From contig JAUHWR010000001.1 in assembly GCA_030427385.1 (NCBI GenBank), forward strand, positions 1,544,042 through 1,608,041: a stretch of DNA of 64,000 nt. The letters run 5' to 3'. This document shows positions 9,388 through 25,800 of the stretch, one piece after another. Every line of letters begins with the position of its first letter. Positions within the stretch are counted from its first letter, which is position 1. Both the position numbers and the translations under genes were made by a program. The notes below the pieces were generated by a model. It had not been told where the DNA came from. It saw only the letters and a program-made list of their open reading frames with translations, and did not search any database. Origin of the DNA: Alphaproteobacteria bacterium. GTDB taxonomy: Bacteria > Pseudomonadota > Alphaproteobacteria > Micavibrionales > Micavibrionaceae.

Positions 9388-9478
9388 GGTGTCGTGGCCG
9401 AGTGGCTGAAGGCGCACGCTTGGAAAGCGTGTTTACGTTAATCGCGTAACGTGGGTTCGAATCCCACCGACACCGCCA
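9388..9478 (+). tRNA. tRNA-Ser (anticodon GGA), class II with a long variable arm and an encoded CCA
   Basis: Acceptor GGTGTCG/CGACACC. Anticodon stem CACGC/GCGTG with loop TTGGAAA. T-arm GTGGG-TTCGAAT-CCCAC. Long variable arm, discriminator G, then CCA. Confidence 0.9.
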
Positions 9479-9707
9479 TTTGATATCAAATTATCGTTTA
9501 AAATCAATAGAATCTGTCTTGTTATTTTGATCTCTGTTCTCGGTTGTGTGTTACAAACTGTGATACAAAATTACCAAAAGAGTTCCCTCCTACCTCTATC
9601 TTCGGGAACGGGAAATCGATGAAAAACTAGAGATTGATTATCCAAATGACGGAATTTCCTCTTTTGTACATAGACGTTAAAAGTGTGTGTCATTATACTG
9701 ATTTGCG

Positions 9708-12700
9708 ATGCTTTTATATAATAAAGGAAATTTAGGAAAATTAAGTGGGACGCTTAAACTAGCTGTGCCGATAATGTTTATCCTGTTTTCTATGGTTCTT
9801 GGGAGTTCGTTGGGTGTTGCCGGAACCAATTCACTTGAAGACGAATTGACTGCCCGGCAGGCGACGCAAACGCATAAGCTGCTGAATGCCTTTGAGGCAA
9901 TGCGTTCGGTTGGCGAAGCGTCGAATGCCGGCGTTGGGGCGGGCACGGAAACGGCGAGACAAGCTTGTTCGGCGTTACAGGATCAAGGTAGCCGTGTTTT
10001 AGGTGATGCCTTAAAAGAAGCCTTTTATAAAAATTTGATTACGCCGTCTTACCTTGCGGGATTTGAGGATACGTTGATTTCGCAGGGGCAATCGGGTTTG
10101 TCGCAGGCTTTGCGGATGAGCTGTGCCGCTCTGCGAGGGGAAGAGGCCGGGGGCGGTGCAAATCTTTTTGATACAGAAAATTTAAAGCGTATGGGCATTG
10201 CACTTGCTTTGGATCAGGGTGAACATACGATCAAATCCATGGCCGCGCCGTTTGTAGAACGCATTGAATTGGAAACCGGCTATGACGATGGCGTTTTTAT
10301 GTGGGAGGCTTTGACTGTAGTGCCTTTATGGGAGAACGGGAAAGACCATCTCTTCACCCAACTTTCCTGGCTGCACGATACGGAAGATGGCGATACGCTC
10401 AATGCAGGCTTGGCCTGGCGGCGATTGAATGAGAATAAGACAATGGTATATGGCGTGAATGCTTTCTTCGATCATGCGGCGCGCAAGAACCATAACCGGG
10501 CCAGCATCGGCGCGGATGTGCAGACTTCGACGCTTGGGTTATCTACCAATAAATATATTCCGCTTTCAAGCTGGAAAGGTTTGAATGTTTATCAGGAGGA
10601 GCGTGCGGCATCGGGATGGGATCTGGAGCTACAGGGGCGCCTTCCTGAATTTCCAGAATGGCAGGCAAACTTGAAGGGCTATGGTTGGTCCTCAAATTAT
10701 GAGGGCTGGTCGGAAGACATTTTGGGCTATGATACTACTCTGCAGTGGAGCCCCGTTAATATTTTGCAAGTCGAGGCGGGTGTGCGCAATGAACAAAGCG
10801 CTGACCCAGACTATCACGCAGCGTTGCGACTGGTTTACCGGTTTGGTGAAAATGTTGAGCGTGCCTGGGATAAGCCTGTTCGCCTCGCCAGCATGGAAGA
10901 GCGCGTCTATGATAAAGTGCGCCGAGAGAATAAAATCCGTACTGAACGCAGAACTAAAGATGAGTTCTTTGTCACTGTAATTGAAAGCGCCGGATCGAAC
11001 AGCGCCAACACAGAAGAAGGAGATATCGCTTTATCTGCTGGCGTAGGGCTGCCAATGCCCTTTACTTTGAACGTGAGTCCCTTAGTTGGATCAATCGCCC
11101 GTCTGGAATTTAGGGATAATGCCCTTTTAACTGTGGGTGCAGGTAGTCAGGTTCGTGTAGAGGCCAAGACGATCACATTGTTGTCCGGCGTACTGCAATA
11201 TGTCTCAGGCACACAGAACGTAACACTGGCTGCGCCGGGAGCCACGGTCACCCTACTTGGGACAGATGTAGATCTCTCAACGAACGGCACAACCTCTGTC
11301 TTACGTGTTCGTGACGGATCAGCCATATTGGCGGGCACATCATCGGGAAATGCCACATTGAATGCGGGTGAGGCGGCAGAGAGCGTAAGCGGTACAGTCG
11401 GCACCCTCATCAGCGCCTCTGCCGTTTATATCAGCCATACGGATGAAATCAGCGCAAAAATTGACCGCGTGGCCAGTGCGCTCATAGGCGTGAAAGTTGC
11501 GCCGTATCCGGCGGGAGCTCCTGTTCTCACAACGCAGGCCACGGCAAGCGGTGAGACCATGACCATCAGCCTAACCTTTAATGACGTGGTTAACGTGGCA
11601 GGGGGGCCTCCACAACTCACGCTGGATATCGGCGGTATAACGCGTACTGCGACTCTCTCCGGCGGCTCAGGCAGCAAAACACTGACCTTTAATTACACAT
11701 TGGTTGGAGCCGATGCGGGAGCCACGTCCATCACCGTTAATGGCTTTAATAATAATGGCGCAACCATAACAGGCAATGGCGGCAAAATCGCCATCACCAC
11801 GATCGCTGATACTGTGCTGGGTGAAGGCGCAACCCTCACGGAAACGATCGCCTTAGCCCTCGACTTCGTTAATAATCTTTTCTCCTTGAACGGGACATCC
11901 TACGGCTCCTTCACCGCCATTCCCGGCGCAACATTTTCTCGCGCAACGCCGGCAACAACTTATGCCGAGGACTCAAGCGGCAACCTCGTCGCCTTCGCCG
12001 CAAACACTCCTAGAATTACCGATAAAGGACTGTTGGTTGAGGGAACTAAAGAGAATTTAGCCCTATACAGCAACGATTTTAATCAGACAGGGTGGGCTCG
12101 CTTTAATGTAACTGCTTTACCAAACTCTACTTTGGCCCCCGATGGAACGATGAGTGCCTATAAAATAGTTGAAAATACAACAGTTGGAACCCAGCATTGG
12201 ATAGCACGCACAGGTATTAATGTTGTGTCGGGGCAAAAATACGTCATAAGCATCTTTGTGAAACCTGCCGAACGTACAGCTTTTAATATGTTTGGTTCAG
12301 GAATTTTCCCTCAAAGCGCAGCCTTTAACCTTTCCACGGGAACAATAACCTCTTCTTCTGCCCCTGCAACTATCAAACCTTACGCAAATGGATGGTATCG
12401 TTGTACTTTATTACTTACCGCTGGAAGTACTGGTAGTGCAAGCGCATATGTAGCACAACTCAATAATCCTACTGGAACATACACAGGCGATGGAACCTCT
12501 GGTCTATTCATCTGGGGAGCTCAAGTAGAGCAAGCCTCCTTCGCTTCCTCTTATATCCCAACCGCCGGGGCAAGCGTAACGCGGAGTAAAGACGACCCCA
12601 GAATAACAGGAATGAGCATTCTTCCTGACTATACGGCTTATGCTGAATTTGAATATCGTTCAGAATCTAGTCGTAATAGCAGTCGTCTTTTAGGATTGCA

Positions 12701-13040
12701 GCCTACGGCGGGAAGAAATGCTGTATCGCCGCTCACTTCAACAACACTTGCCCATACTGCTTTTAATACGATTGATGGAAATACAGCGGCTGCGAATGGT
12801 ATAAATCAATCAATTCGTAAACTTGCAGGAATTTCAACGACGTCACCACAATCTCGCCGAATAGTTGCTGATGGCGGGACTGTCGTTGGTGATGGTGGAT
12901 TTACACCTTTAACATCGGTTTTATTTATAGGAAATGAAAATGCTGGCGCAGCAAATTATATTGAAACATATCTGCGCAGCCTAAAAATCTACCCCACTGC
13001 CAAAACCGATGCCGAGCTTCAGGCTCTGACCGCGCCTTAA
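9708..13040 (+). CDS. Inverse autotransporter (intimin/invasin-type beta-barrel) whose passenger has FecR-like, Ig-like and phage/GTA spike-fibre-like plus LamG-like domains
   Basis: Signal-like N-terminus. The IAT beta-domain pattern spans about 10200-10900 (VVPLWENGKDHLFTQLSWLHD...LNAGLAWRRL...GVNAFFDH...ASIGADVQ...NKYIPLS...ASGWDLELQG...LRLVYRFG). The C-terminal LLVEGTKENLALYSNDFNQTGWARFNVTALPNSTLAPDGTMSAYKI...GLFIWGAQVEQASFASSYIPT resembles phage/GTA head-spike or tail-fibre domains as I recall them. Confidence 0.7.
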   Translation: MLLYNKGNLGKLSGTLKLAVPIMFILFSMVLGSSLGVAGTNSLEDELTARQATQTHKLLNAFEAMRSVGEASNAGVGAGTETARQACSALQDQGSRVLGDALKEAFYKNLITPSYLAGFEDTLISQGQSGLSQALRMSCAALRGEEAGGGANLFDTENLKRMGIALALDQGEHTIKSMAAPFVERIELETGYDDGVFMWEALTVVPLWENGKDHLFTQLSWLHDTEDGDTLNAGLAWRRLNENKTMVYGVNAFFDHAARKNHNRASIGADVQTSTLGLSTNKYIPLSSWKGLNVYQEERAASGWDLELQGRLPEFPEWQANLKGYGWSSNYEGWSEDILGYDTTLQWSPVNILQVEAGVRNEQSADPDYHAALRLVYRFGENVERAWDKPVRLASMEERVYDKVRRENKIRTERRTKDEFFVTVIESAGSNSANTEEGDIALSAGVGLPMPFTLNVSPLVGSIARLEFRDNALLTVGAGSQVRVEAKTITLLSGVLQYVSGTQNVTLAAPGATVTLLGTDVDLSTNGTTSVLRVRDGSAILAGTSSGNATLNAGEAAESVSGTVGTLISASAVYISHTDEISAKIDRVASALIGVKVAPYPAGAPVLTTQATASGETMTISLTFNDVVNVAGGPPQLTLDIGGITRTATLSGGSGSKTLTFNYTLVGADAGATSITVNGFNNNGATITGNGGKIAITTIADTVLGEGATLTETIALALDFVNNLFSLNGTSYGSFTAIPGATFSRATPATTYAEDSSGNLVAFAANTPRITDKGLLVEGTKENLALYSNDFNQTGWARFNVTALPNSTLAPDGTMSAYKIVENTTVGTQHWIARTGINVVSGQKYVISIFVKPAERTAFNMFGSGIFPQSAAFNLSTGTITSSSAPATIKPYANGWYRCTLLLTAGSTGSASAYVAQLNNPTGTYTGDGTSGLFIWGAQVEQASFASSYIPTAGASVTRSKDDPRITGMSILPDYTAYAEFEYRSESSRNSSRLLGLQPTAGRNAVSPLTSTTLAHTAFNTIDGNTAAANGINQSIRKLAGISTTSPQSRRIVADGGTVVGDGGFTPLTSVLFIGNENAGAANYIETYLRSLKIYPTAKTDAELQALTAP

Positions 13041-13308
13041 AATGTATGGCCTTTGCCACGCATCAGTCATGTAATATATTTATTGTGTCTTTTCAGACTT
13101 ATGTCCATTATCAGTCCGTTTAAATATTACAAAGCATGAACTAAAATAATCACGCTTACAGTAATAAGGTATTTATAAAATTAATGGAAAGTGTCATTTT
13201 TTATAGCGTGCGATCGATCATAAAAGAACGGTTACAAAGTGTATTGTAATTAAAAAACGTGATTTGAAATCTACTCATCATCTTGCTTTCCTTCAATTCG
13301 CCGCCTGT

Positions 13309-16300
13309 TTACTGACAATATTTGATATTATAGGAGCATAGATCATACAGGTCGATGATGGGTTGTTCTATTTCCATGAGGTTTGCTTCTACTAGGCGGA
13401 CGCCTCCATCTTTCTCAAAGCTTAAATCCTTAACGCCATGGCCGTTACGATGGACCACATAAGGTGGTTCTTGTGATGCGTTGCTCTCGGAATATTGGGC
13501 AGGTGAGAAGATATATCCAGTATTTCCCATTTGCCAATAATTAGTGATTTGCGTTTGGTATTCAACGGTTGAGCTTAACTGTTGAGAGGGAGAGGGCATG
13601 GCCAAAATTCCCGGCGCAAACGTAAAATCATATCCGATTAAACTTAAAAGAGAGCCTTCGGTCCCATTAATACGATAATTTCCCGACGCTTGTCTTGATT
13701 TGCTAAAGGACGGCAGGCCGCTCAAAATTGAGGATAGTGTATCTCCGCTTTCCAACCCTGAGACTGTATAAGTAAAGCTGTCATAGGTCGGATTGAAGGT
13801 ATTTAATATAACATCATCGGCTGTAAACGTCAGGGACGGCCGGTAAGCATATAGGAATAAATCGCCGGTTTGGGTGATCGAGAGCGGGGGATTAGTAGTA
13901 TAGCTGCGATTGTAATAATGCGGCGCGTTTAAGCCATTTTTTATTGTGGTTGACGGGCCATCTGTATAAACAAGATATCGTCCAGCCCCGGCATCAATCG
14001 CCGCCATGCCGCCGTTATTCGTAAAACCGTTTGAGACCAAAACCACGCTATTACCAGCGCCCGTGGCCGATACTGCGCCATTAAGAGTCATATCGCCATT
14101 GGCAATCATGGATAAAGAAGTACCCACATCCACCGCACCATCAATTGTGAAATGTCCGCCAAGCAAGCGCACGTTATTCGCGGTGATCCCCGTGAAGTCC
14201 ACACTATCAATATGAACCGCGCCGGCGTGGGCGGAACCAATCGTTACATCCCCCCCAATAGTAAATTGCGCCAATTCTGAATCAGTGATATTCAATGTGC
14301 CTGCACCACCGCCCACACCAATGCTCGTGCCCGATGTGCGGTTTTTGATGGTGAGGTTGCCAAGGGTTTCAATTTTAGAACCTGTTTCATCAAAATCCCA
14401 ATTATCAGCTATCAGTGTAATATTTCCAGAGGCCAAGCTTCCTGCCGTATCTTCACCAATTTCAACACCAGATATCGTTTGTATATCAGTTCCGCCTTCT
14501 GAGCGGCCTTCAATCGTAATGCTCGATGATCCGTCAGATACAACCTCAGCATTGTTTATAAAAACACCAGGTTCGGCACTCATCGTAATACCAAGCAGGC
14601 TAATATCTCCACTTGTGGATTGAAATTTGCTACCACCATTTTGAAGATTCATCCCTGCCCCTCTTTTCGCTATTCCGGTCATAAAAAGATCACCTGAATT
14701 CGTCACAATTGCGGATGAGGCGTTAGTCAAAATACCAGAATTATTCGTATTTGCTCCGTCACCTGACTCTTGACCAACCAAGATCACATCACCGGAGTCA
14801 TTTTCAATTCTAGCAGTAAACAAGTAAATGCCGTGATTTGCGCCGCCCACCCCGAATGAATTTCCGTGCACATTGATATCGCCCGCCGTCGAATTGACAT
14901 TGGCAGATGATTTTATATAAGTACCGTGATTGTAGTTACCCCCCACACCCCCGTTACCAGTGATTGCAATCGCACCATCAACAGATGATATTTCAGTGCC
15001 GCTATCGGTCATATAAACCCCGTAATTGTCCGTCGTTCCATTGCCGCCAGTCCCATTGAGGGTGATTGTTCCCGCATTCGCGCCCGCTCCGGTTGAGTTT
15101 ACATCCGAACCCGCGGCCAAATGGACGCCATAATTAAAATTACCAGATCCGTTTCCTGTTCCAGTTAAACGGATATCACCACTGGCAGATGTAACAATTG
15201 AATTTGAATTCAGCGATACACCATAATTGTAGCCAACGGCATCACCACCTGTTCCAGTGATCGTAATATTACCGCTGTCCGATGTAATAGACGGCGTATC
15301 ATTTATATATGTTCCAATATTGAATGATCCAGTATCACCACCAATTCCATTAAATGTAATATTGCCTGATGTTGTGGTTAATGTCGTTCCACCAGTTGTA
15401 TAGACACCATAGGTATTATCTGTCGCCCCATTTCGACCATGTCCATTAACCGTAATATCACCTGCGCCTGTATTGATATCAACGTTATCAAGTTTTAATC
15501 CGACATTGTAAGAAGAATTACCATAGGCCGCCGTGGTTAATGGGTTTGCCCCGCCACCTGCGATAAAATCTCCTCCGTTTGTTGAGATATTAGCGTTAAG
15601 AATTTGAATCGCGCCATTTTGATCCGCATCACGGTCGGCGTTAAGGATGATATCGCCATTTGACGTGACATGTTCATTAATTGAAATATTGCTGTCCGAT
15701 TTAATATTGATCGCCCCCCCTGATTGCAGGGTTGCATTATTCGCCATGACAAAATCATCAACGGTGATATCGATATTTCCGCCTGCAGTAATTGCGGCGC
15801 TGCCATCCTCCATATTCAGGCGCGTATCACCTGTGATGGTGATATTGCCCGTATTGGCATGGCCAATCCGGCTAATGCTGGCGGGATTACTTTGTTCCCA
15901 CAGGCGTATTGCGTCCGCCGTGCCGTTGGTGCCTTTATCATGTGTGATTGTAATGTCACCACCGCCTGTGGCCTGTATCAGACTTGTGCCATTACTTAAG
16001 CTTAGTCCTTGAGAATTGGCAGTTCCTTGGTTAGTGGTGTTGATCACAATGTCTCCATCACCGATCGTTTCGATGGTCGCGGAACTATAAAATCTTAAGA
16101 TACCCTCGCCTGCAGTACTTGGTGTAAACAAATCCAAGGTAATGTCACCATCATCCGCACGGATCAGGCCACCATTATTCATCCTAAGGCCACCGTTTTG
16201 GTATCCACCAATGCCGCCAGTAGAATAAATATTAATGGCAGAACTGCCGCTACCAATAATATTTCCAAAGTTATATGTGCCGTAATTAAAACTTCCCGAC

Positions 16301-19300
16301 CCGCGCCCTTGGGCCGTAATATCTATCGTGCCACCATTGCTTGTGATATTATCACCTGAGGACGCGATATATATACCGTAATTACTTTGCCCACCATTCC
16401 CACCAGTCCCATTTAAAGTAATGTTTCCTGTTGTGGTTGTAAGATCTGCATTAATATAAATCCCGTAATTATCATCGCCAGTATCTTCGCCTTCACCGCG
16501 GATAGTAATGTCCCCAATCCCCGTTGTGATCGTACTGTTATTGATATGTACACCTCTATCATACACACCATCCTGCCCCGCATGTGCCGCCGTAGTAAGA
16601 GGATTAGCGCCACCCCCGGCGATAAAATCGCCGCCATTGGTGGTGATTGTTGCGTTACTAATGCTAATGGCACCATCTTGAGTAGAATTACTGTCGGCAT
16701 TTAAGATAATGTCACCGTTGGATGACATGACAGAATTTTGAATGTCGATATTACTGTTTGAAATCAAATCAATTGTACCAGCAGAGGTGAGATCAGCATC
16801 AATATTTATAGCATCCCAGCCAACATTTCCCGCTGTCCCGCTTTCCATCCGAAGACTGGCACCATCTGTAGTGGTAAAAGTATCCGCAACGGTAATCGTG
16901 GCATCACTACCAGTATTCAAAAAATTAACATCATCGGAGAAGCTAACTGCACCTGTAATGTTTATGGCTTCGGTATATATATTCGATCCAAAGGTGATGG
17001 AATTAAACCCATCCTGTATAGTACCAAGTTCATCCGATGTCATCTGCCAATCATGCCCTGCCGATGTGCCTCCAATTTCCATGGCTTCGTTTTGATCACC
17101 TTCTAAGAAAATAAGGCTTGAAGAGCCATCGACATTTCCTGAAATAGATGATGTGGAATCAAAACTAATTTGTTCACTTTCTAAAGTTATATCACCGTTT
17201 GAATGTAATACTGAATTTGCAAGTAATTCTATCTTGGTACCACCGCTATGCGCACCAGCGTCGATGTTTATATTACCACCTGCATGAATGGAAGAATTTG
17301 CTTTAAGACTAAAACTTTGAGCTATCTGAGAAAAAGTAAAATCTCGTCCTACATTAACATCACCTGTTATACCAAAATTATTTGCCACATCAATGATGAA
17401 GTCTCTACCAACATTAATTGTTCCCGAAGAAATTCCGAGCCCTGGATTAGAGATGATAGTTAAATCCCGCGCGATATTTAGGTCTGCCGTAACATGGACA
17501 CCATTATAACCATGAATGCCCGGTGGATTTGCTCTACCATATATATATAAATCTGCGTTATCTATTGTTGTAATAGCGGCGTTTATATCTATAGGTGCCG
17601 TTACAGAACCACTGTTATTTATAAATTGTATATAATCAGAAAACGTAACTGTTTCATTTACTGCTGTTGTTGCTCTGTGAGCATTCCCACCAATTAAAAT
17701 CGAATTCCAACCGTCATCAAGGAACGCGAGCTCTGCCGCTGTTAGGTTAAGATCATTTGCATCGGTTGAGCCGATCTCAATCTCTTGATTTACATTGGCG
17801 CTTGTCAGTTGGATATCACCCGATCCTCTCAGGCTTGCACCGATATCAATTTCATCGGCCTTTAGGGTTATATTGCCACTGCCACTATTCAATTGAGCGG
17901 TTGTGGTTATTGTACCGCCTGCCGCGGTTTCCAATCGGATGTCACTGCCGTTTGCGGCAACCACTGTTAAACCCGTTAAATCGATATCACCACCTGACAC
18001 CATCGTTATATCACCTGATGCACCAAACGTATTAATCCGTCCGCCAGACACGCTTATAATATCGCTGTTCATGGTGGTGAGCGTGAGGGATTTATTACTG
18101 GCAAGATTCATTGTATCGCCCTGCAAATCAAGGGTGATGGTGTCTGTTGCTTGTAAGTCAATATTCGCCGTTTGTGATAATTTTTCCAAATACCGTGTGC
18201 TAAAGGTGCCAAAGCCATTCGTGGCGTCCATTGCCTCTGCGGCCTCGGTTCCTGCCCCTGCAATCGGGTCAAGATCTAAGTAACCCTGAGAAGATAGATG
18301 TTGGTTAATTAATAAAGTTTCATCCGCATTTAAAACTCGCCCATATAAGATTGAGGAATAATATTTATTAGCAAAACTGTTACCATATCCCGTTAGACGA
18401 TAATTTTTATCACCTGAATTTTGATCTATAAGAGAATTTTCACTGACAACATTTGTTCCATTAATGTCGATGTTATAAGTATCTGCAATTTCCGAACGAT
18501 ATGCCGATAGGATCGACTTCCCACTATATGATACTCCCGAGCCTTGGTCAGCTTTGGCAAAATCTCTGTATCGTAAAGTTCCTGTATTTGAATTTATAAA
18601 ATAATTACTATTTATATTGACTATAGTTCCACCGGCAGCGTAATGATCGATCGTTTCGACTGTAACAATATGGCTCATTTCGCTAGGATCAAACCCAGTT
18701 ACAGTCCCTGACAGAGAATCTGTGACCAGAAACGATGGCCCACTATGCCTTAATCTAATACCGTCTGATGTATATAAAGGCATTTCGTCTTCATTAATCT
18801 GGCTTAGGTCACTTGTGGCGGCTTTATCAGTCCACTCGGAAACAAGGCCTCGCCTAAGGGTGTCTGTTGCATATGTCGAGGTGAGTGTTTCTGCAACGGT
18901 GATGGTGGTGCCGGCAATGGCGGTGATTGTATATGTATCATCCCCAAGTGTATTGGCCGTGGTGATTGCGCCTTGTGCGCCCAACCTTATTCTGGCACCC
19001 ACTTGTAATTGACCAGACACATCCGCACTTGTGGTAATTGTATTTGTTCCAATCGATCCGCCGGCCGTCGCCCCGCCAAGTGCGTCTGTAGAGTATGTCA
19101 GTTCAATCGTTGCCTCATCCGCCGCATCCAGCCATAGGTCGAGGTCTGATGCAAGGTCAATGCTTGTCCCATCGGTTGACACATAGTCAGGACCAATCGT
19201 ACCGGAGGCATCGCCGTAAATCGTTATATCCGCAGGGTCAAGAAGGTATGTTCCCTTATTGTATCCACCTGCGGCAGCGGATAAATCGGCAAAACCATTG

Positions 19301-20592
19301 GCACGCAGGTTTTCCTTACCAGATGTTTCTAAGAACCCCCCATTGCCGGATTGAAGGCCGCCGCGCGCCAGAACGAGACCATTAAAATCTGTTGTGTGAT
19401 CACTCCAAAAAATCGTGCGCCCGCCGTCGCCATGAATTAAACCATCATTAAGAGTCAGGGCGTTTGCATCCACATATAGTGTCTGCGCCCTTAGGGTATC
19501 CCTGGTGCCCAAATAATCACCGCCAATCTTAATTGAACCGCCGCCGCGCGAAGAATCCGCCAAGAATGCGTCTGCAGTTTTGACCTGCTTATCCGCCGTC
19601 ATGGTTGCGGTATCAAGCTTTTCTTCAGATACTAGCGCGTTAGACGTACCGCTCGCATCTATTACAGAGCCCGCAGCAATTACAATATGCTGCCCCAAGA
19701 CACTGATTTGTCCGCCCTGTGTTTGGTTTTTGCGCCCGGAGGCATCTAAAATAGCGCGATTTATACTCATGCCGCTATCAGCGCCTCCCAGAATTATCTT
19801 ACCGCCGACATGATTCATGGATTGGGCTTCAATGATGCCACTATTATCAACAATGGAATCAAGCAGAGATCGGGCATGACCCGCCGTGAGCGCGACTATA
19901 CCGCCTTCGGCGCTTATCCGTCCTGTATTGGTGGCAAGCTTGCTGGCTTGCTCATCACTCACCGCCACCTTCAATAAACCATCACCCGCCATATCAAGTG
20001 TAAAAGTATCCGCCGCCGCCAGTTGTATCTGGCCTAGCTTTGCCTGAATCACGCCGTGATTTTCAACATGCGGAGCCACAAAATTGACTAACCCTGCTTC
20101 TTTGGCTGTGATTGATCCATGATTAATAATTGCACTTTCAGGCCTACCGGCCTGCTTAAATGCTAATTTTCCATTCATAAAATCATCATTATCAATGTCG
20201 GCTGTGCTCACCGTGAGTGATCCGACATCAACTGCAGCGCCCGCCCCAAACACCACCCCGTTCGGGTTTACCAACATGACATGACCGTTGGCGATTAAGC
20301 GTCCATCTATCTGTGAAGGTTTAACATCCTGAATTCGGTTTAAAGCCATCGCGCCAGTGGATGGCTGGTGAAACTCTACATGCTCTTGCGATGTCACATC
20401 AAAACTGCGCCAATCTAAGATCACTTTATCGCTATGCTGATGAATATCTGTCTTTGTCCCATTCTGACTGATATTTGCAGCGCCGCCAATAATTTGACCG
20501 CCTTGCGGCGCGGCCATGACTTTACCTTCCATCACCCCAAGAGCAATAGTTGCAACTGATGTCATCAAAAAATACTGGGATTTCCGAAACAT
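13309..20592 (-). CDS. Filamentous-haemagglutinin-family large exoprotein (TpsA) with an N-terminal TPS domain, beta-helix repeats, a LamG-like insertion and a C-terminal MBG-like domain
   Basis: TPS/haemagglutination-activity domain at about 20110-20510 (ILDWRSFDV...ALNRI...IDGRL.ANGHVMLVNPNGVVFG). Hundreds of G/N/T-rich beta-helix repeats follow. An MBG-like segment (SGNYRINGTEGSLLSLIGYDFTFAPGIL) lies at about 13610-13860. Confidence 0.85.
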   Translation of the reverse strand: MFRKSQYFLMTSVATIALGVMEGKVMAAPQGGQIIGGAANISQNGTKTDIHQHSDKVILDWRSFDVTSQEHVEFHQPSTGAMALNRIQDVKPSQIDGRLIANGHVMLVNPNGVVFGAGAAVDVGSLTVSTADIDNDDFMNGKLAFKQAGRPESAIINHGSITAKEAGLVNFVAPHVENHGVIQAKLGQIQLAAADTFTLDMAGDGLLKVAVSDEQASKLATNTGRISAEGGIVALTAGHARSLLDSIVDNSGIIEAQSMNHVGGKIILGGADSGMSINRAILDASGRKNQTQGGQISVLGQHIVIAAGSVIDASGTSNALVSEEKLDTATMTADKQVKTADAFLADSSRGGGSIKIGGDYLGTRDTLRAQTLYVDANALTLNDGLIHGDGGRTIFWSDHTTDFNGLVLARGGLQSGNGGFLETSGKENLRANGFADLSAAAGGYNKGTYLLDPADITIYGDASGTIGPDYVSTDGTSIDLASDLDLWLDAADEATIELTYSTDALGGATAGGSIGTNTITTSADVSGQLQVGARIRLGAQGAITTANTLGDDTYTITAIAGTTITVAETLTSTYATDTLRRGLVSEWTDKAATSDLSQINEDEMPLYTSDGIRLRHSGPSFLVTDSLSGTVTGFDPSEMSHIVTVETIDHYAAGGTIVNINSNYFINSNTGTLRYRDFAKADQGSGVSYSGKSILSAYRSEIADTYNIDINGTNVVSENSLIDQNSGDKNYRLTGYGNSFANKYYSSILYGRVLNADETLLINQHLSSQGYLDLDPIAGAGTEAAEAMDATNGFGTFSTRYLEKLSQTANIDLQATDTITLDLQGDTMNLASNKSLTLTTMNSDIISVSGGRINTFGASGDITMVSGGDIDLTGLTVVAANGSDIRLETAAGGTITTTAQLNSGSGNITLKADEIDIGASLRGSGDIQLTSANVNQEIEIGSTDANDLNLTAAELAFLDDGWNSILIGGNAHRATTAVNETVTFSDYIQFINNSGSVTAPIDINAAITTIDNADLYIYGRANPPGIHGYNGVHVTADLNIARDLTIISNPGLGISSGTINVGRDFIIDVANNFGITGDVNVGRDFTFSQIAQSFSLKANSSIHAGGNINIDAGAHSGGTKIELLANSVLHSNGDITLESEQISFDSTSSISGNVDGSSSLIFLEGDQNEAMEIGGTSAGHDWQMTSDELGTIQDGFNSITFGSNIYTEAINITGAVSFSDDVNFLNTGSDATITVADTFTTTDGASLRMESGTAGNVGWDAINIDADLTSAGTIDLISNSNIDIQNSVMSSNGDIILNADSNSTQDGAISISNATITTNGGDFIAGGGANPLTTAAHAGQDGVYDRGVHINNSTITTGIGDITIRGEGEDTGDDNYGIYINADLTTTTGNITLNGTGGNGGQSNYGIYIASSGDNITSNGGTIDITAQGRGSGSFNYGTYNFGNIIGSGSSAINIYSTGGIGGYQNGGLRMNNGGLIRADDGDITLDLFTPSTAGEGILRFYSSATIETIGDGDIVINTTNQGTANSQGLSLSNGTSLIQATGGGDITITHDKGTNGTADAIRLWEQSNPASISRIGHANTGNITITGDTRLNMEDGSAAITAGGNIDITVDDFVMANNATLQSGGAINIKSDSNISINEHVTSNGDIILNADRDADQNGAIQILNANISTNGGDFIAGGGANPLTTAAYGNSSYNVGLKLDNVDINTGAGDITVNGHGRNGATDNTYGVYTTGGTTLTTTSGNITFNGIGGDTGSFNIGTYINDTPSITSDSGNITITGTGGDAVGYNYGVSLNSNSIVTSASGDIRLTGTGNGSGNFNYGVHLAAGSDVNSTGAGANAGTITLNGTGGNGTTDNYGVYMTDSGTEISSVDGAIAITGNGGVGGNYNHGTYIKSSANVNSTAGDINVHGNSFGVGGANHGIYLFTARIENDSGDVILVGQESGDGANTNNSGILTNASSAIVTNSGDLFMTGIAKRGAGMNLQNGGSKFQSTSGDISLLGITMSAEPGVFINNAEVVSDGSSSITIEGRSEGGTDIQTISGVEIGEDTAGSLASGNITLIADNWDFDETGSKIETLGNLTIKNRTSGTSIGVGGGAGTLNITDSELAQFTIGGDVTIGSAHAGAVHIDSVDFTGITANNVRLLGGHFTIDGAVDVGTSLSMIANGDMTLNGAVSATGAGNSVVLVSNGFTNNGGMAAIDAGAGRYLVYTDGPSTTIKNGLNAPHYYNRSYTTNPPLSITQTGDLFLYAYRPSLTFTADDVILNTFNPTYDSFTYTVSGLESGDTLSSILSGLPSFSKSRQASGNYRINGTEGSLLSLIGYDFTFAPGILAMPSPSQQLSSTVEYQTQITNYWQMGNTGYIFSPAQYSESNASQEPPYVVHRNGHGVKDLSFEKDGGVRLVEANLMEIEQPIIDLYDLCSYNIKYCQ
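14605..16722 (-). repeat. Diverged internal tandem duplication (two units of 1059 bp / 353 aa) inside the TpsA gene
   Basis: (S/T)SNGDIILNAD...(D/N)GAI.I.NA.I(T/S)TNGGDFIAGGGANPLTTAA occurs twice. The Ser codons are at 16720-16722 and 15661-15663, exactly 1059 bp apart. Both copies are followed by G.G.....NYG(I/V)Y periodic repeats. Confidence 0.75.
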
Positions 20593-20740
20593 AACCCTAT
20601 AAGGATACCTGATTTAGCTTAAAGAACTATAAAAAATTATTTAATCAAGCCGTTCATAGAATGAAAAATATCACTTTTTGTTCGCATCGCAATTTATTTG
20701 GCATGATTTTTTTTTAAGAATATAGTTGCTTGTTGATAGC

Positions 20741-20775
20741 GAAAAAAAACGACCGAGGAAATAACTCTCGGTCGT
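20741..20775 (-). terminator. Rho-independent terminator downstream of the 542-aa gene
   Basis: Perfect 9-bp stem ACGACCGAG / CTCGGTCGT (20749-20757 / 20767-20775). It is followed on the transcribed (minus) strand by a T8 run (A8 at 20742-20749 on the plus strand). Confidence 0.75.
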
Positions 20776-20847
20776 TAAGAATTCATGGGTATGACCATGA
20801 TGGTTTAATAATCTTAAAAGAAAATTTATTTAAGATATGAAGGCATC

Positions 20848-22476
20848 TTATCCCCAGTAAGGACTAGTATCCATGCCTGTTAAGACATATGTATCATTAT
20901 TATCATAATCACCTGTTAAGGCCAGAACGTCTAGATCTTCTCTCGTGTGTATTACCTCCTCATCAGTCGCTTGACCTTCTTGTGCCATTGCACGGTCTTC
21001 ATCTAAACGTAAAGCGACAGGGTCTGTGCCGTTATAAGATGAAACAGCGCCAAAGAATTTAGTCGATAAGCCATTATCACCAAATTCAAAGCCATCACCG
21101 ATTTGGCTCCATTCATGCGTTAAGCTTTTTCCATAGGATTCAGCCGTAAAATTGTAACCATTATTTACGCCGCTGCCTTGCTCAATCGCAATCCATGCGA
21201 CTTCTGCTGTGTCATTCGGGTCTAGCTCACGCCCTTCACTTTCAATTTTGAAATCAAACCCGTCTTTGCCAGTTTTTACAGATTCTTGTCTTACGATCTT
21301 AAAGCCGTCGTCCGTACTGCTTTGGATTTGCGTTAGGACGATTGGGCGCTCAGAGAACGGAGTGTTAAACGTAATGCCATGCATGTAGTCTGCAAAATCA
21401 ACAGTTGTTGTGCCGACCTCTACTTTTGTTCCATCATCAAGCGTGAAGTTACCAGTATAAGTAGCCATATAGTTAACTTGTTCTGTCACATGATATCCAT
21501 CTAGATAATCAGCTTCTTGTAATATGATATCAAAGCTGCTGCCTGGGAAGTTTTCATAGTTTTCAACATTTTGGATCTTTGGTGTCGCCATATGTGACCC
21601 ATTAAAGCTAGCCAATGTTGTGAAAATGACAAGATCTTCTTCTCTAAAGTTTGTAGTTAGATTTACAGCAGTAGAATTATGACTAAGTTCAATAGAACCA
21701 AATTCTATGACCGTCTTGCCTTCCGGCTCTGGCTTCAACCAATCTTCGGCTAAAGTTGACTGAAGATATGAAAAATGACCTTCATCCAAAACATCATTAT
21801 ACTGAACAACTTTTTCGATTTCGCCTTTGAATTTTGAACCAGTTGCACGCTCATTATTTACAAGTGTAGTTTGTGCCACGCGGCCAACACCAATATCATC
21901 ACCATGTGCATATAAACGGCCAACACCAGTTTGGATGTCATCAACCAATTCTCCGTTCAAATATAGCTGCGCACTGCCTGTATTGGCATCATTACCATCC
22001 AGAACCAGTGTGGTTGTGTATTCTTTATTCGCTTCGATTTCAACGGAAAGCTCTTTATAGCCCCAATTACCTTCAGCTTTATTCCAGAACCCGGCAGTCA
22101 TTACACCGTTTTCGATTGAAATACTTAAACCGCGTGTAATACCGCCCTGTTCATACATAACTTGCGTTGATTCAATATCATCACCGGTTTTTAATTCCAT
22201 TGCATGTGTTTTTTGCAAGTAAGTGCCAGTGTTAATTTCCTGACTATCCGGAACAGAATGAGCGTTTACGCCGTCGATTAGAAACAGGACAGGCTGGGGC
22301 AATTTTGCCGCCACCGCCGTAGGAGCCGTCAAGAAATCAAATCTATCTGAATCCGTATCAAAGATTCCCTCTAAACCGGAATTTTTGATATTTAGCAGGT
22401 CATGCTCATCTCTTGGGAGCACACTGCTCATTCCCGTATTGGTTGTTAATGAATTACGTGTTAATGTAGTCGTCAT
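20848..22476 (-). CDS. Secreted-type protein with no Sec signal: LamG-like jelly-roll followed by three tandem beta-sandwich-like repeats; paralogue of the C-terminal third of the 1478-aa protein
   Basis: LamG-like core YEQGGITRGLSISIENGVMTAGFWNKAEGNWGYKEL...LYLNGELVD...FKGEIEKVVQYNDVLDEGHF. Then three repeats, each ending in an h-T/E-E-V-x-Y/H-x-A-x-E/T-x-G motif. AGAGGT SD. Aligns by eye along its length with residues about 950-1478 of the neighbouring gene product. Confidence 0.6.
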   Translation of the reverse strand: MTTTLTRNSLTTNTGMSSVLPRDEHDLLNIKNSGLEGIFDTDSDRFDFLTAPTAVAAKLPQPVLFLIDGVNAHSVPDSQEINTGTYLQKTHAMELKTGDDIESTQVMYEQGGITRGLSISIENGVMTAGFWNKAEGNWGYKELSVEIEANKEYTTTLVLDGNDANTGSAQLYLNGELVDDIQTGVGRLYAHGDDIGVGRVAQTTLVNNERATGSKFKGEIEKVVQYNDVLDEGHFSYLQSTLAEDWLKPEPEGKTVIEFGSIELSHNSTAVNLTTNFREEDLVIFTTLASFNGSHMATPKIQNVENYENFPGSSFDIILQEADYLDGYHVTEQVNYMATYTGNFTLDDGTKVEVGTTTVDFADYMHGITFNTPFSERPIVLTQIQSSTDDGFKIVRQESVKTGKDGFDFKIESEGRELDPNDTAEVAWIAIEQGSGVNNGYNFTAESYGKSLTHEWSQIGDGFEFGDNGLSTKFFGAVSSYNGTDPVALRLDEDRAMAQEGQATDEEVIHTREDLDVLALTGDYDNNDTYVLTGMDTSPYWG

Positions 22477-22789
22477 AGTTACCTCTATTTTTAAAGTTTT
22501 GGTTAAAGTTGGTTTTTTGTTAAATAAAACCTATTTTAAAGTCAAGTTAGTTTCTTTTTTTCATAATTTTGGGGATTTTTCCCACTAGACATAAGAAGCT
22601 TTAAAATGAAACTAGACGACATTTTATTATAGAATTTTGTTATAAAATTTCTAATTATACTTGTTATAAAAAATTTTCAGAAAATAGATTTTTTGAAAAT
22701 TTTTTTATTTTTTTTGAAATTTGATCATTCTAATCGTTAAAAATGATTACTTATGTATTCATCACGTTGTTTTAATGAATGTGTGGAGA

Positions 22790-22834
22790 CAAAAAAATAT
22801 CCCCGAAATCTATCAAAATAGATTTCGGGGATAT
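22790..22834 (-). terminator. Rho-independent terminator downstream of the 1478-aa gene
   Basis: Perfect 16-bp inverted repeat ATATCCCCGAAATCTA / TAGATTTCGGGGATAT (22797-22812 / 22819-22834) with a 6-nt loop. A T7 run follows on the minus strand. Confidence 0.85.
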
Positions 22835-22879
22835 TAAAATTATGACTTAAAAAGTTACTTTGATCTACTAAACATAAAA

Positions 22880-25800
22880 TCAGATTATGCTTGAAGTGTC
22901 CGTTCCCGTTAATAGACCCGCCCCTTCAATCGCAAAAATATCCATCACTTCATTGGTGTGTACGACTTCATTATCATGAGATCTGTCCTCTTGAATCATC
23001 ACATCAACGCCATTTTTCTGTAGATTATCAATACGAGCAACGGATGTATCTGTGCCGTTTGTCGTTGAAATCTGCGCCAAAAGCTGTGGTAAGCTATCAA
23101 ATTGGTCATTGAAGACGATATCTTCCCAATTGTGATCAAATCGCTGACCTGTGTGCTTGGCAAAGAAATCATGGCCATTTGCACTGCCGGCTCCTTGTTC
23201 GATGGCAAAATAGCCGATTGTTTCGGATAAATGCATGCCACCATTTGAGGCTTCTTCTTCTTGCATTGCCAGATTAAATCCATCATTCCGGGCATCATCA
23301 TGACGTGTGGTCACAAAAGCCGCCCCGTTATTTGTCTGAACTTGTGAGAAGATCGCAGGCGTGTAGTTAAAGTGGGTATCAAAGTTAATATTGTTCCAAC
23401 CACCGCTTGTTAGTAGAGGACTATCAATTGTTCCCACTTCCAATCTTGTGCCATCATCCAGAGTCCAGCTACCTTTTTCAACAACGATATAGCTGAATGT
23501 TTCTGTTGTGTGGCTCTGATCAAGATAATCGGCTTCTTGGGCATAAAGTGTGAAGCTGTCATTTTGTATATCTGTTATACGTGCAACAGCCATTTCCTCA
23601 CCGTTATGTGATGTCATCGTCGCAAAGACCACGGGGTTATTAAAGTGATTCTTTAAACTAACCGTTACTTCGTTGTGATTCGCATTAACGCTGCCGAACT
23701 CCATGATATAGGGCGCTTCGGGTGGCACTGTCTCATCAGATTTTTCTTCCGGCAGCCAATCTTTCGCTAAGCTGTCATTGAATTTTCCCAACTCCTCGCC
23801 CTTAAGCGCAGCGTTGAAATGTGCAAGCTTTTCAATTTTACCGGTAAAGTCCGTAGACCCTCTTACGGTTTGATTATTAATCAGCGTATCACCAGCAATT
23901 TGTCCAATGCCGATATCACCTGCATGCTCATATAACTTGCCGATCCCGCCTACGGTATCAACTTTTTGACCATTTAAGTAAAGAGAGGCAGTGCCCTTTT
24001 CATTATTAGTGCCGTCTAGAATAAATGTCGCCGTATATTTGGTATTGGCGGAAATATTTACGTCCAGCTCTTTATAATTCCAATTTGTTTCGGCTTTATT
24101 CCATGCTGCGGCAAAAAGCTTTCCGTCTTCAATGAAGAGATTGAAACCGCGCGTTGCGCCGCCTTGTTCATAAATCACTTGTTGTTTATTCACATTGGCA
24201 CCTGTTTCAAATGCAATAGCCTGTGTTTTACCAAGACTATCACCCAGATTAATGCCTTTGGCATCGGCCATGCCATCAATCTTCACACCATTTCGCAAGG
24301 CGTAAATAGGATCAACTGGCTTAGCTTCCGGAGTTATTGGCGTATTATCTTCGTCTGTATCAGTAAGCGCGGCAGATACTTTTAGCTGGACCGTAGCGGT
24401 ATCACTTTCGCCGCGTCCATCTATTACACTGTAGCCAAAGAAATCATTACCAACAAAATTTGCCTTGGGTGTGTATGTGAAATCACCATTCTTACTCAGA
24501 ATAACTTTCCCGCCCATTTCCGTCGTAATGGTTCCGGCTATAACTTCTAAATTATCGCCATTTGAATCTGTATCATTCCCTAAGACATTCTCACCCTTTA
24601 AGATGTTACCCTCAATGGCATTAAAGCTATCATTTTGGGCATTAGGTGCGACATTTTTAGATTCCGTCGGTATCGGACCGGAAACCAGACTGACATTAAT
24701 ACCTTTTTCAATCAGAACATCCTGACCACCCGCAACTTTTGATTTATAAAAACCATATGTTACGCCATCAATGGTTCTGTTATTTTGGAATGTTGAATTC
24801 GCCAAAGATACGCTATCGCCTTTTTCACCTTGAACCATCAAGGTTTCACCATTATCAGAAATTCTGAGCGCGCTGTTCAAAAGGAGCTTATTATTCGCCA
24901 AGTTCCTAAGGTCGATTGTTTCCACGCCAGAGACCACAGCACCGCCGATTGCAAAATCGAGTTCGTCGCTATTTTGGTAAGCAAGGCGAATGGTGTCATG
25001 ACCGCTACCGCCATCAATAATGGTATCATTTGCATCAACCACCATGATGTCATTGCCGGCATTGCCGTATAGCTGGTCAGCGCCGTTTCCGCCGTGAAGG
25101 GCATCATTGCCATCGCCGCCGCGCAATATATCATTACCGCCATTACCTATCAGGACGTCTTCTTCGACAGTGCCTTGTAAGACATTATTGCTATTATTGC
25201 CTTCACGATGGACACCTTGTAGGAATGTTCCCGCATCACGATTTTCATTGACCCATGGGGTTTCCTGATTAAGGTCCTCGATGAAGTCAAAGCGGGATGT
25301 ATTGGCATTTGCCTCATTCTGCTCCCCGACATATTTTAGTGATCCGAAGCGTCCTTGATAATCTTTATGGTGGTGAATTTCGCCGCCGCCATTTTTAATC
25401 CAAGCATCGAACCATGACTCATAGATACTTTCCATCGCGGGAGAATCATAAAGGTAATTCAGGAATGGCTTGAATGCGCCATCAACCTTGGCATTGCGAT
25501 ATTTACCCCATTGCGCCTGAGATATATGTTGTCCGCCTTCATACATCAGAAGATCAAGATTATAGTTTTCGGCCTTGTTACCTTGTTGGATGAAACGCGC
25601 TTGCATATCTGTTTCCAGATCTTTGTGTAAAGCCCGCACGATCAATGTGCCATCCGCGATTAATTCATTAATCGATTTATTCACAATTCCATCAAATTCA
25701 AGAACTGTTCTGAACGCATTACCAGTATTAAAACGCATCTTCAAAACAGAATTTCCGCCTTCTTTTTCTAATCTGACGTAATTATGCACATCGGAGCCGA

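Follow-up and report, generated by a model that had tools for sequence, protein, structure and literature searches.

What is a bacterial outer-membrane anchor doing with a module related to the fibres of phages and gene transfer agents (GTAs)? The question is raised by a gene in a stretch of 64,000 nucleotides (nt) from Alphaproteobacteria bacterium (GenBank assembly GCA_030427385.1, contig JAUHWR010000001.1), the whole of which is called the window below. From the DNA letters and open reading frames (ORFs), an original prediction had described the gene product as an inverse autotransporter (IAT) that displays a receptor-binding module of phage or GTA type. Our analysis points to a type Ve surface adhesin whose lectin tip, homologous to phage and GTA fibres, probably binds the surface polysaccharide of another bacterial cell. 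What appears new is the type Ve adhesin with a phage/GTA receptor-binding tip, together with the exchangeability of the tips and the existence of fused and split forms. Full-text searches found no description that joins inverse autotransporters with gene transfer agents, and the literature they returned for inverse autotransporter passengers together with tail fibres consisted of unrelated general reviews.

Architecture of the encoded protein

The Pfam model IAT_beta matched amino acids (aa) 178-408 of the protein (E = 3.4e-42, 145.4 bits against a cut-off of 22.3), where a beta-barrel had been predicted at about 10200-10900. In a full-length AlphaFold2 model, for which 35 family sequences served as input, aa 185-378 form a barrel of 12 strands with a predicted local distance difference test (pLDDT) score above 90. 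Foldseek superposed this barrel on invasin (4e1t) and intimin (4e1s) from the Protein Data Bank (PDB) with a template modelling (TM) score of 0.87, a root-mean-square deviation (rmsd) of 2.4 Å and an E-value of about 1e-16. A sequence search of the PDB likewise returned invasin (4e1t, E = 4.6e-13) and intimin (4e1s), the linker motif included; the linker EERVYDKVRRENKIR aligns to invasin ESRYNLVDRNNNIV. The order of the parts is inverted, with the barrel N-terminal (aa 178-380), the passenger C-terminal (aa 412-1110) and the pore linker between the two.

From aa 741 (about nt 11930), where the phage/GTA fibre-like module had been predicted to begin, the NCBIfam model NF048003 (GTA_spike_fiber) matched aa 776-960 over model positions 1-181 of 182 (E = 5.5e-46, 157.4 bits, cut-off 36). 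The best PDB sequence match was the RcGTA head-spike fibre Rcc01080 (6tb9; aa 743-963, E = 4.4e-34), with further matches to the phage tail fibre gp17 (9occ) and to baseplate proteins of Pa193 and E217. PHROG 5939 ("tail protein") aligned to aa 617-1108 over profile positions 264-761 of 801 (E = 7.1e-52), and tblastn with the first 220 tip residues found annotated phage tail-fibre and tail proteins of RcapMu (39% identity), RcWaterboi, Nonlabens, Rhizobium, Azospirillum and cyanophages. Chance is excluded because the profile and sequence E-values (IAT_beta, NF048003, Rcc01080) are so low. The original prediction had staked itself on matches to IAT_beta and to phage or GTA fibre proteins, and both were found. 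The conserved tip motifs are APDGT, GNGWYRC and WGAQxE...SYIPT, and the family-invariant tip residues R769, N783, G813, E941 and R959 are all kept in the window protein. A motif scan of the whole protein found no (I/L)G capsid-docking repeat; 740 autotransporter residues precede the spike-fibre domain.

Refolded on its own from 71 sequences, the tip (aa 741-1110) was modelled with a pLDDT of 86.5 and a predicted TM score (pTM) of 0.86, its core (aa 741-963) reaching a pLDDT of 93-98. Superpositions on phage tail-fibre and tail-protein folds span TM 0.78-0.84. Among the predicted viral structures in BFVD, the whole tip matched "Concanavalin A-like lectin/glucanase" proteins of uncultured tailed phages (TM 0.84, rmsd 2.7 Å, E = 1e-23) and also superposed on annotated tail fibres of the E. 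coli phages EdH4, NBEco002 and rolling (TM about 0.8). In the PDB, Foldseek matched it to Pa193 gp46, E217 gp45, the laminin LG4-5 pair, a sialic-acid-binding CBM40 and pentraxins. On the strength of these fold matches in BFVD and the PDB, the tip is predicted to consist of two ConA/LamG-type jelly rolls and to have a lectin-like fold. The second part terminates in a YPxxxTxAELQALT strand-helix, and 66 of 128 tip homologues reach its C-terminal end. The same fold belongs to the ConA-like lectin/glucanase superfamily, and many phage receptor-binding proteins are depolymerases, which would suit a surface-displayed depolymerase or glucanase rather than a lectin. We consider this very improbable, since a motif scan of the tip found neither a GH16-type ExDxxE motif nor E-x-D-x(1-2)-E, the fold and profile matches are binding modules (CBM40, pentraxin, laminin LG and CBM_4_9, the last matched weakly by tip relatives), and the studied homologue binds and does not degrade.

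The stalk and the N-terminal end of this putative lectin-tipped protein were also assigned. Pfam FecR matched aa 460-538 slightly below its 24-bit cut-off (E = 1.7e-4, 22.4 bits), within the FecR-like segment that had been proposed at about 11070-11390. The surrounding beta-rich domain (aa 412-567) was modelled confidently (pLDDT about 90), and the full-length model matched the C-terminal domain of the FecR-family protein PupR in Foldseek (6ovk_R; E = 3e-5, rmsd 3.1 Å, 124 columns); PF04773 is also precomputed on several relatives of the stalk family. The immunoglobulin (Ig)-like domain foreseen at about 11480-11800 was recovered as a confident beta-rich model at aa 606-705 (pLDDT 80-90), its sequence support being a weak BatD/Ig-type Pfam match (aa 610-691, E = 0.05). 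By reading of the translation, the N-terminus is a probable Sec signal peptide, as belongs to the type Ve family, with a basic n-region (K6, K11, K17) followed by a 21-residue hydrophobic core (LAVPIMFILFSMVLGSSLGVAG). The N-terminal ~180 residues were modelled as helical, with low pLDDT (45-58) at aa 40-177. This segment holds C87 and C139 within family-conserved QAC...CAAL motifs; it has no Pfam match and is not a LysM domain, and it may serve in peptidoglycan binding or dimerisation. The nucleotide ranges first given for the four parts are right to within a few dozen bases of those in Table 1. Promoter and terminator scans at the gene gave no signal exceeding shuffled expectation.

Table 1 Positions in the window of the gene, the parts of its product and the adjacent tRNA gene.
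Feature	Residues	Position (nt)	Strand	Basis or remark
Complete coding sequence of the inverse autotransporter	1110 aa	9708-13040	+	Stop codon 13038-13040; single uninterrupted ORF
Probable Sec signal peptide	about 1-39	9708-9824	+	Read from translation
Periplasmic N-terminal helical domain	40-177	9825-10238	+	Low-confidence model, family consensus
12-strand IAT beta-barrel and pore-threading conserved linker RVYDKVRRENKIR	178-408	10239-10931	+	Pfam, PDB sequence, fold
FecR-like beta domain of the stalk	412-567	10941-11408	+	Sub-threshold Pfam match, model, Foldseek
Ig-like beta-sandwich (601-705) and connector up to aa 740	601-740	11508-11927	+	Model, PHROG start, alignments
Tip part 1: N-terminal strands and spike-fibre core jelly roll	741-963	11928-12596	+	NF048003, Rcc01080
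Tip part 2: C-terminal LamG/ConA-like jelly roll	964-1110	12597-13037	+	Fold, homologue extents
tRNA-Ser(GGA), 230 bp upstream of the gene		9388-9478	+	ARAGORN; left edge of large-exoprotein block

Family, exchange and origin of the tip

A search of 5.8 billion database proteins gave 27 that share aa ~20-735 at 34-58% identity. For the named members, which stem from Hoeflea algicola, a Rhodospirillales metagenome-assembled genome (MAG) and another MAG labelled Alphaproteobacteria, the sole annotation is "inverse autotransporter beta domain-containing protein". A spike-fibre tip is present in 12 family proteins including the window protein (31-48% identity in the tip), nine have a PF07603 (Lcl_C/DUF1566) tip instead (P0015, P0016 and P0018-P0024), and three look truncated; NCBIfam adhesin_Lcl is matched by seven members. 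In a maximum-likelihood tree of the stalks, all fibre-tipped members form one clade (97/100) and the Lcl-tipped members fall below it. Stalk identity between P0007 and P0009 is 90% and tip identity 53%; for P0009 and P0010 the respective values are 70% and 75%. Because tip and stalk histories disagree in this way, we conclude that tips move between stalks.

A midpoint-rooted tree of 71 tips grouped the 12 IAT tips with two cellular free-standing proteins, P0036 and P0037, in one clade (100/95). The sister clade (100/99 for the pair) contains P0152 and P0155, both on phage contigs, and the two remaining of four context-checked phage tips branch further out. Metagenomic homologues that span all 370 tip residues are found in phage structural modules: P0039 (locus L008) is encoded after a tape-measure and two large tail genes of a temperate siphovirus, and P0042 (L009) within a podovirus-like capsid/adaptor structural block. 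Because the cellular tips form one clade, and the sister and the checked outgroups are in phage genomes, the tree fits a single capture of the tip from a phage, in the common ancestor of what is now a small family of alphaproteobacterial proteins. Such a capture would be old and common to that family, not private to the window gene. The domain capture from a (pro)phage or GTA that had been proposed thus stands in part: the tip tree supports a phage origin, but the tip did not come from a prophage or GTA resident in the window genome, where it is single-copy and no GTA_TIM or HK97-type capsid match was found. In two sister-clade phages, the large terminase is split by an HNH/NUMOD4 homing-endonuclease gene (L010:10856-12670 and L011:10491-11782), and L010 also holds a GcrA-like gene.

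The tip domain itself is widespread. Among 1.84 billion cluster representatives it was found in 33,533 proteins at E <= 1e-3 and in 3,856 at E <= 1e-30, and many representatives have 3-16 tandem copies. Giant proteins of 2,000-6,800 aa (P0156-P0190) carry arrays of up to 16 spike-fibre stretches. Pfam has no spike-fibre model, and 42 top representatives gave only weak CBM_4_9 and CBM26 matches. None of 276 other tip-bearing proteins matched the barrel hidden Markov model built from the window family. By these comparisons, the unusual feature would be the anchoring of the domain, not the domain itself.

The G+C content at third codon positions (GC3) of the window gene is 0.54 at aa 178-740 (top 5% of genome windows) and 0.33 at aa 741-1110 (bottom 8%), with the step at aa ~750-780. 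From the Ig-like domain to the tip core the step amounts to ~0.23, more than the genome 99th percentile of 0.164 for adjacent 140-codon windows. Relatives show a weaker drop too, and the step may be a family-wide property rather than the trace of a recent exchange in this gene; this tells against the account given here, as does the fact that the direction of transfer hangs on a midpoint-rooted tree and four sampled phage contexts. Because of the weaker drop in relatives we claim no recent event from GC3, and read the step as a mark of a foreign, exchangeable tip, not as proof of such an event here.

The window genome (2.19 Mb in three contigs, rated 100% complete) was searched for related sequences. 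An NF048003 family search found the spike-fibre domain only in the window gene, six segments of the protein in tblastn and the gene DNA in blastn turned up no second copy, and the GTA_TIM and HK97-type Phage_capsid models had zero matches, other capsid types not being part of the search. A donor copy within the same genome is ruled out by the first three of these searches, so that the phylogeny first proposed, of the tip against resident prophage or GTA copies, has nothing to compare, and a resident GTA or prophage was rejected on the result with the two models. A diversity-generating retroelement acting on the tip was rejected as well, since the genome contains no DNA repeat that resembles a template for any stretch of the gene.

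The sharp GC3 drop at the junction and the adjoining tRNA, a common insertion point, would also be expected of a prophage or GTA gene remnant that was accidentally fused to an adhesin gene and whose product is non-functional or not made. We give this next to no credence: the frame is intact over 1110 codons, the fusion is kept in about 12 diverged proteins (31-58% identity), the tip retains every family-invariant residue and a confident fold, and the genome contains neither GTA_TIM/HK97-type capsid matches nor a second copy of the tip. Family conservation already suggests both that transcript and protein are made and that purifying selection acts across the family.

No phage genes were seen among the neighbours of the window gene, which is not part of a virion structural module of the kind that houses PHROG 5939 proteins. 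No integrase was seen, and an attachment-site check found no repeat of the tRNA-Ser 3' end nearby. We take the window gene to be cellular, not viral. To the left, beyond tRNA-Ser, lie housekeeping genes (GT4 glycosyltransferase, ArsR regulator, SDR and SpoT); to the right lie a convergent 2427-aa TpsA, for which no Omp85-type partner was detected among the annotated flanks, a 542-aa protein and a 1478-aa RTX/cadherin protein. Given the neighbours on both sides, the gene beside the tRNA stands first in a block of genes for very large surface proteins. Window positions 9388-27316 comprise tRNA-Ser(GGA) and then four very large exoprotein genes, including the window inverse autotransporter. A contig with an 87% SpoT relative (L015) is syntenic up to a 128-aa gene and ends exactly there, the locus of an 84% SpoT relative is rearranged, and the locus of the Rhodospirillales MAG orthologue (L004) has zero synteny beyond the gene itself. 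The only other inverse autotransporter of the window genome (L002; G000:C1:1020181-1023816, minus strand; IAT_beta E = 2e-10) has a passenger that by eye is right-handed beta-helix-like and then LamG-like, with no detectable similarity to the window stalk or tip.

Fused and split arrangements of stalk and head

Stalk and head are encoded by separate genes in two related loci. In the first (L007:5772-12897; JGI metagenome 3300056626, contig Ga0558126_00169), an 851-aa ORF encodes a stalk of the window family; downstream on the same strand come three genes whose products each join a signal peptide and an Ig-like domain to a head, which is spike-fibre in two of them and LamG_3 in one. P0037, the second-closest free-standing relative, is encoded directly behind this stalk ORF. 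An RND pump gene downstream is in six pieces, and because this gene is broken the contig may carry frameshifts. In the second locus (L012:7001-11208; GCA_021208225.1, JAJOJX010000012.1), the stalk is followed by a head of 555 aa that carries a signal peptide and aligns to aa 613-1108 of the window protein. The stalk here appears frameshifted near its end, giving a 715-aa product with a Cys/Trp/Gln/Arg-rich tail that is seemingly out of frame, and the stalk frame seems to be resumed in a 134-aa ORF ending in "...GLYEPN". The closest free-standing relative, P0036 (48% identity), is a lone signal-peptide, Ig and spike-fibre head encoded between secE-nusG and leuS on a bacterial chromosome (L006:4042-5589), with no inverse autotransporter within the 13.6-kb locus. 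A further locus, L013, looks like a LamG_3-tipped fused member interrupted by a frameshift or a 4-nt overlap.

Without their signal peptides, the free-standing heads align from aa ~618, in the second Ig strand, to aa 1108 (P0036 from 620, P0037 from 618). The split stalks end in "...APYIVSVTPPANATYEP" or "...GLYEPN" directly before the stop codon (the "APY...YEP" motif), and these ends correspond to the "APYPAGAPVLTTQ" first-strand segment before the Ig domain of the window protein. By this alignment, the window protein would be the covalent, fused counterpart of a split stalk and head pair, and the fusion in turn gives indirect (Rosetta-stone) support for a putative docking between stalk and head in the split loci.

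A more far-reaching scheme, which we offer tentatively and with low expectation, is that the family is a modular stalk and exchangeable-head system in which separate heads dock by completing the Ig domain with a first strand ("APY...") from the stalk, that the host is a Micavibrio-like epibiotic predator, and that the head would in that case serve prey-glycan recognition, having come from a phage host-range determinant. The SpoT encoded beside the gene is 84-87% identical to metagenome-bin proteins and ~72-73% identical to proteins of two Micavibrio sp. MAGs (~2.1-2.5 Mb), the only organism-named SpoT relatives among the matches listed. The host genome, at 2.2 Mb, is rich in giant adhesins. 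M. aeruginosavorus is an epibiotic predator with a genome of 2.48 Mb, and a part in prey recognition has been proposed for its lectin-bearing RTX proteins (PMC3189940). Since the placement comes from one protein and loose MAG labels, predation by the host is kept as a possibility only.

Comparison with known systems and proposed function

To our knowledge, work on inverse autotransporters has dealt almost entirely with Big-domain adhesins that act in the virulence of enteric pathogens. In a 2016 survey of the family, the passages on passengers that term searches located deal with Big-domain repeats, the intimin lectin tip and ZirT-type translocators, and the words phage, FecR and Alphaproteobacteria are absent from its text (Heinz et al, 2016; PMC4943183). 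Like intimin and invasin (4e1s, 4e1t; PF11924; PMC4943183), the window protein has a signal peptide, a periplasmic domain, a 12-strand barrel, a linker and a C-terminal passenger, and it carries a lectin-type terminal domain on an Ig-containing stalk. Unlike them, it has no LysM, no Big_1/Big_2 repeats and neither a C-type-lectin Intimin_C tip nor an invasin D5 tip by Pfam search, and the FecR-like stalk domain and phage-type double jelly-roll tip are its own. The NCBIfam equivalogs for intimin, invasin and SinH match the window protein at barrel level only (49-68 bits against cut-offs of 508-2400), and its host is a small-genome environmental alphaproteobacterium-like organism, whereas those of intimin and invasin are enteric pathogens.

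The RcGTA head-spike fibre Rcc01080/GhsB (6tb9) shares the motifs APxGTM, GNGWYRC, WGAQxE and SxIPT with the window tip, which is a homologous receptor-binding domain. Rcc01080 acts as a monomer held by a flexible attachment and binds capsular polysaccharide, with a single, N-terminally anchored subunit per spike (Bardy et al, 2020; PMC7296036; Alim et al, 2023; PMC10218006). It is a 325-aa particle protein with an N-terminal I/L-G repeat in the pentameric capsid spike base; the window protein has no such repeat, and has instead an outer-membrane barrel anchor and an extra ~150-aa C-terminal jelly roll. The PHROG 5939 proteins of the phages RcapMu, EdH4, NBEco002 and rolling, with Pa193 gp46 and E217 gp45, share the Ig and double-jelly-roll unit (aa 617-1108) at the distal C-terminus; they sit in virion structural modules, whereas the unit in the window protein is the passenger of a cellular secretion system. 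Nearest in concept are the MAT (mosaic adhesive trimer) fibres of Bdellovibrio bacteriovorus, described as cell-surface, chimeric phage-like fibres with diverse tips, one member binding surface glycans of a particular prey (Caulton et al, 2024; PMC10769870). The MAT fibres are named trimers and include an S74-domain group (PMC10769870), whereas the window protein has a single barrel anchor and no S74 domain by Pfam search. The split loci L007 and L012 share stalk and head families with the window protein, in which stalk and head are one polypeptide, and the nearest described analogue of these loci is the Salmonella ZirT/ZirS inverse-autotransporter translocator (PMC4943183).

In the mechanism that we propose, the Sec signal peptide read from the sequence would send the protein into the periplasm, and the N-terminal 12-strand barrel, shown by profile and fold, would insert in the outer membrane. 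The C-terminal passenger would then be threaded outward through the barrel, as in other type Ve proteins, whose passengers are exported through or with the barrel and exposed at the surface (PMC4943183). In the model, the passenger forms a stalk of FecR-like and Ig-like domains that would hold the two-jelly-roll lectin module at its far end. There the tip would bind the capsule, lipopolysaccharide or exopolysaccharide of another bacterial cell and tether the two cells; we infer polysaccharide binding because the tip is homologous to the capsule-binding RcGTA fibre. Such a graft would be feasible in that the C-terminus is the distal binding end in phage fibres and in inverse autotransporters alike, and the head-spike-type module presumably functions as a monomer. 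The tip would have been acquired from a phage once, in the family ancestor, and later exchanged among stalks in the manner of phage receptor-binding proteins.

Several points weigh against the functional side of this proposal. Polysaccharide binding is extrapolated from one studied homologue aligned over ~220 residues; the PDB entries of Rcc01080 resolve only residues 2-10, and the binding site is unmapped (PMC7296036). The family-invariant residues look structural and are therefore uninformative on specificity, and the candidate target cells are self, prey or partner.

The choice among these targets bears on another use of the same architecture, in which the tip attaches to the capsule or exopolysaccharide of the very cell that displays it and serves matrix retention, self-aggregation or biofilm formation. 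The studied homologue binds the capsule of its producing species, and the inverse autotransporters FdeC (PMC4943183) and YeeJ promote biofilm. The GT4 glycosyltransferase upstream could be counted on the same side, but its place next to SpoT is conserved in a relative, which gives it the look of housekeeping context. Against this use, no capsule locus was recognised in the neighbourhood of the gene. Moreover, the tips diverge much faster than the stalks and are swapped between near-identical stalks, and because of this a varying foreign target fits better than a self polysaccharide. We regard binding to the cell's own polysaccharide as unlikely. A displayed module of this kind might also shield the cell from phages by occupying or masking its own glycan receptor, given that the tip is homologous to phage adsorption modules and that reuse of phage parts for defence is common. 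This seems to us highly improbable: long-stalked display is more typical of outward reach than of masking, and the annotated neighbours showed no defence genes, the PADLOC defence library not having been run. Attachment to the surface polysaccharide of another cell is the reading that we carry forward.

Under that reading, the window gene represents a case, in environmental Alphaproteobacteria, of a type Ve scaffold that bears a phage receptor-binding module, and its family would evolve like phage host-range proteins, with a conserved stalk and fast-changing, swappable tips. The fused form would independently support the assembly of stalks and heads from separate genes in the related loci. We know of no experimental structure of the body of the head-spike-fibre domain, and the window protein would offer a tractable, monomeric, cell-anchored version of this very abundant domain. 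If the host is a predator or an epibiont, the protein would be a candidate for the choice of the cells to which it attaches. The bacterium appears to use a viral host-recognition part as its own attachment device.

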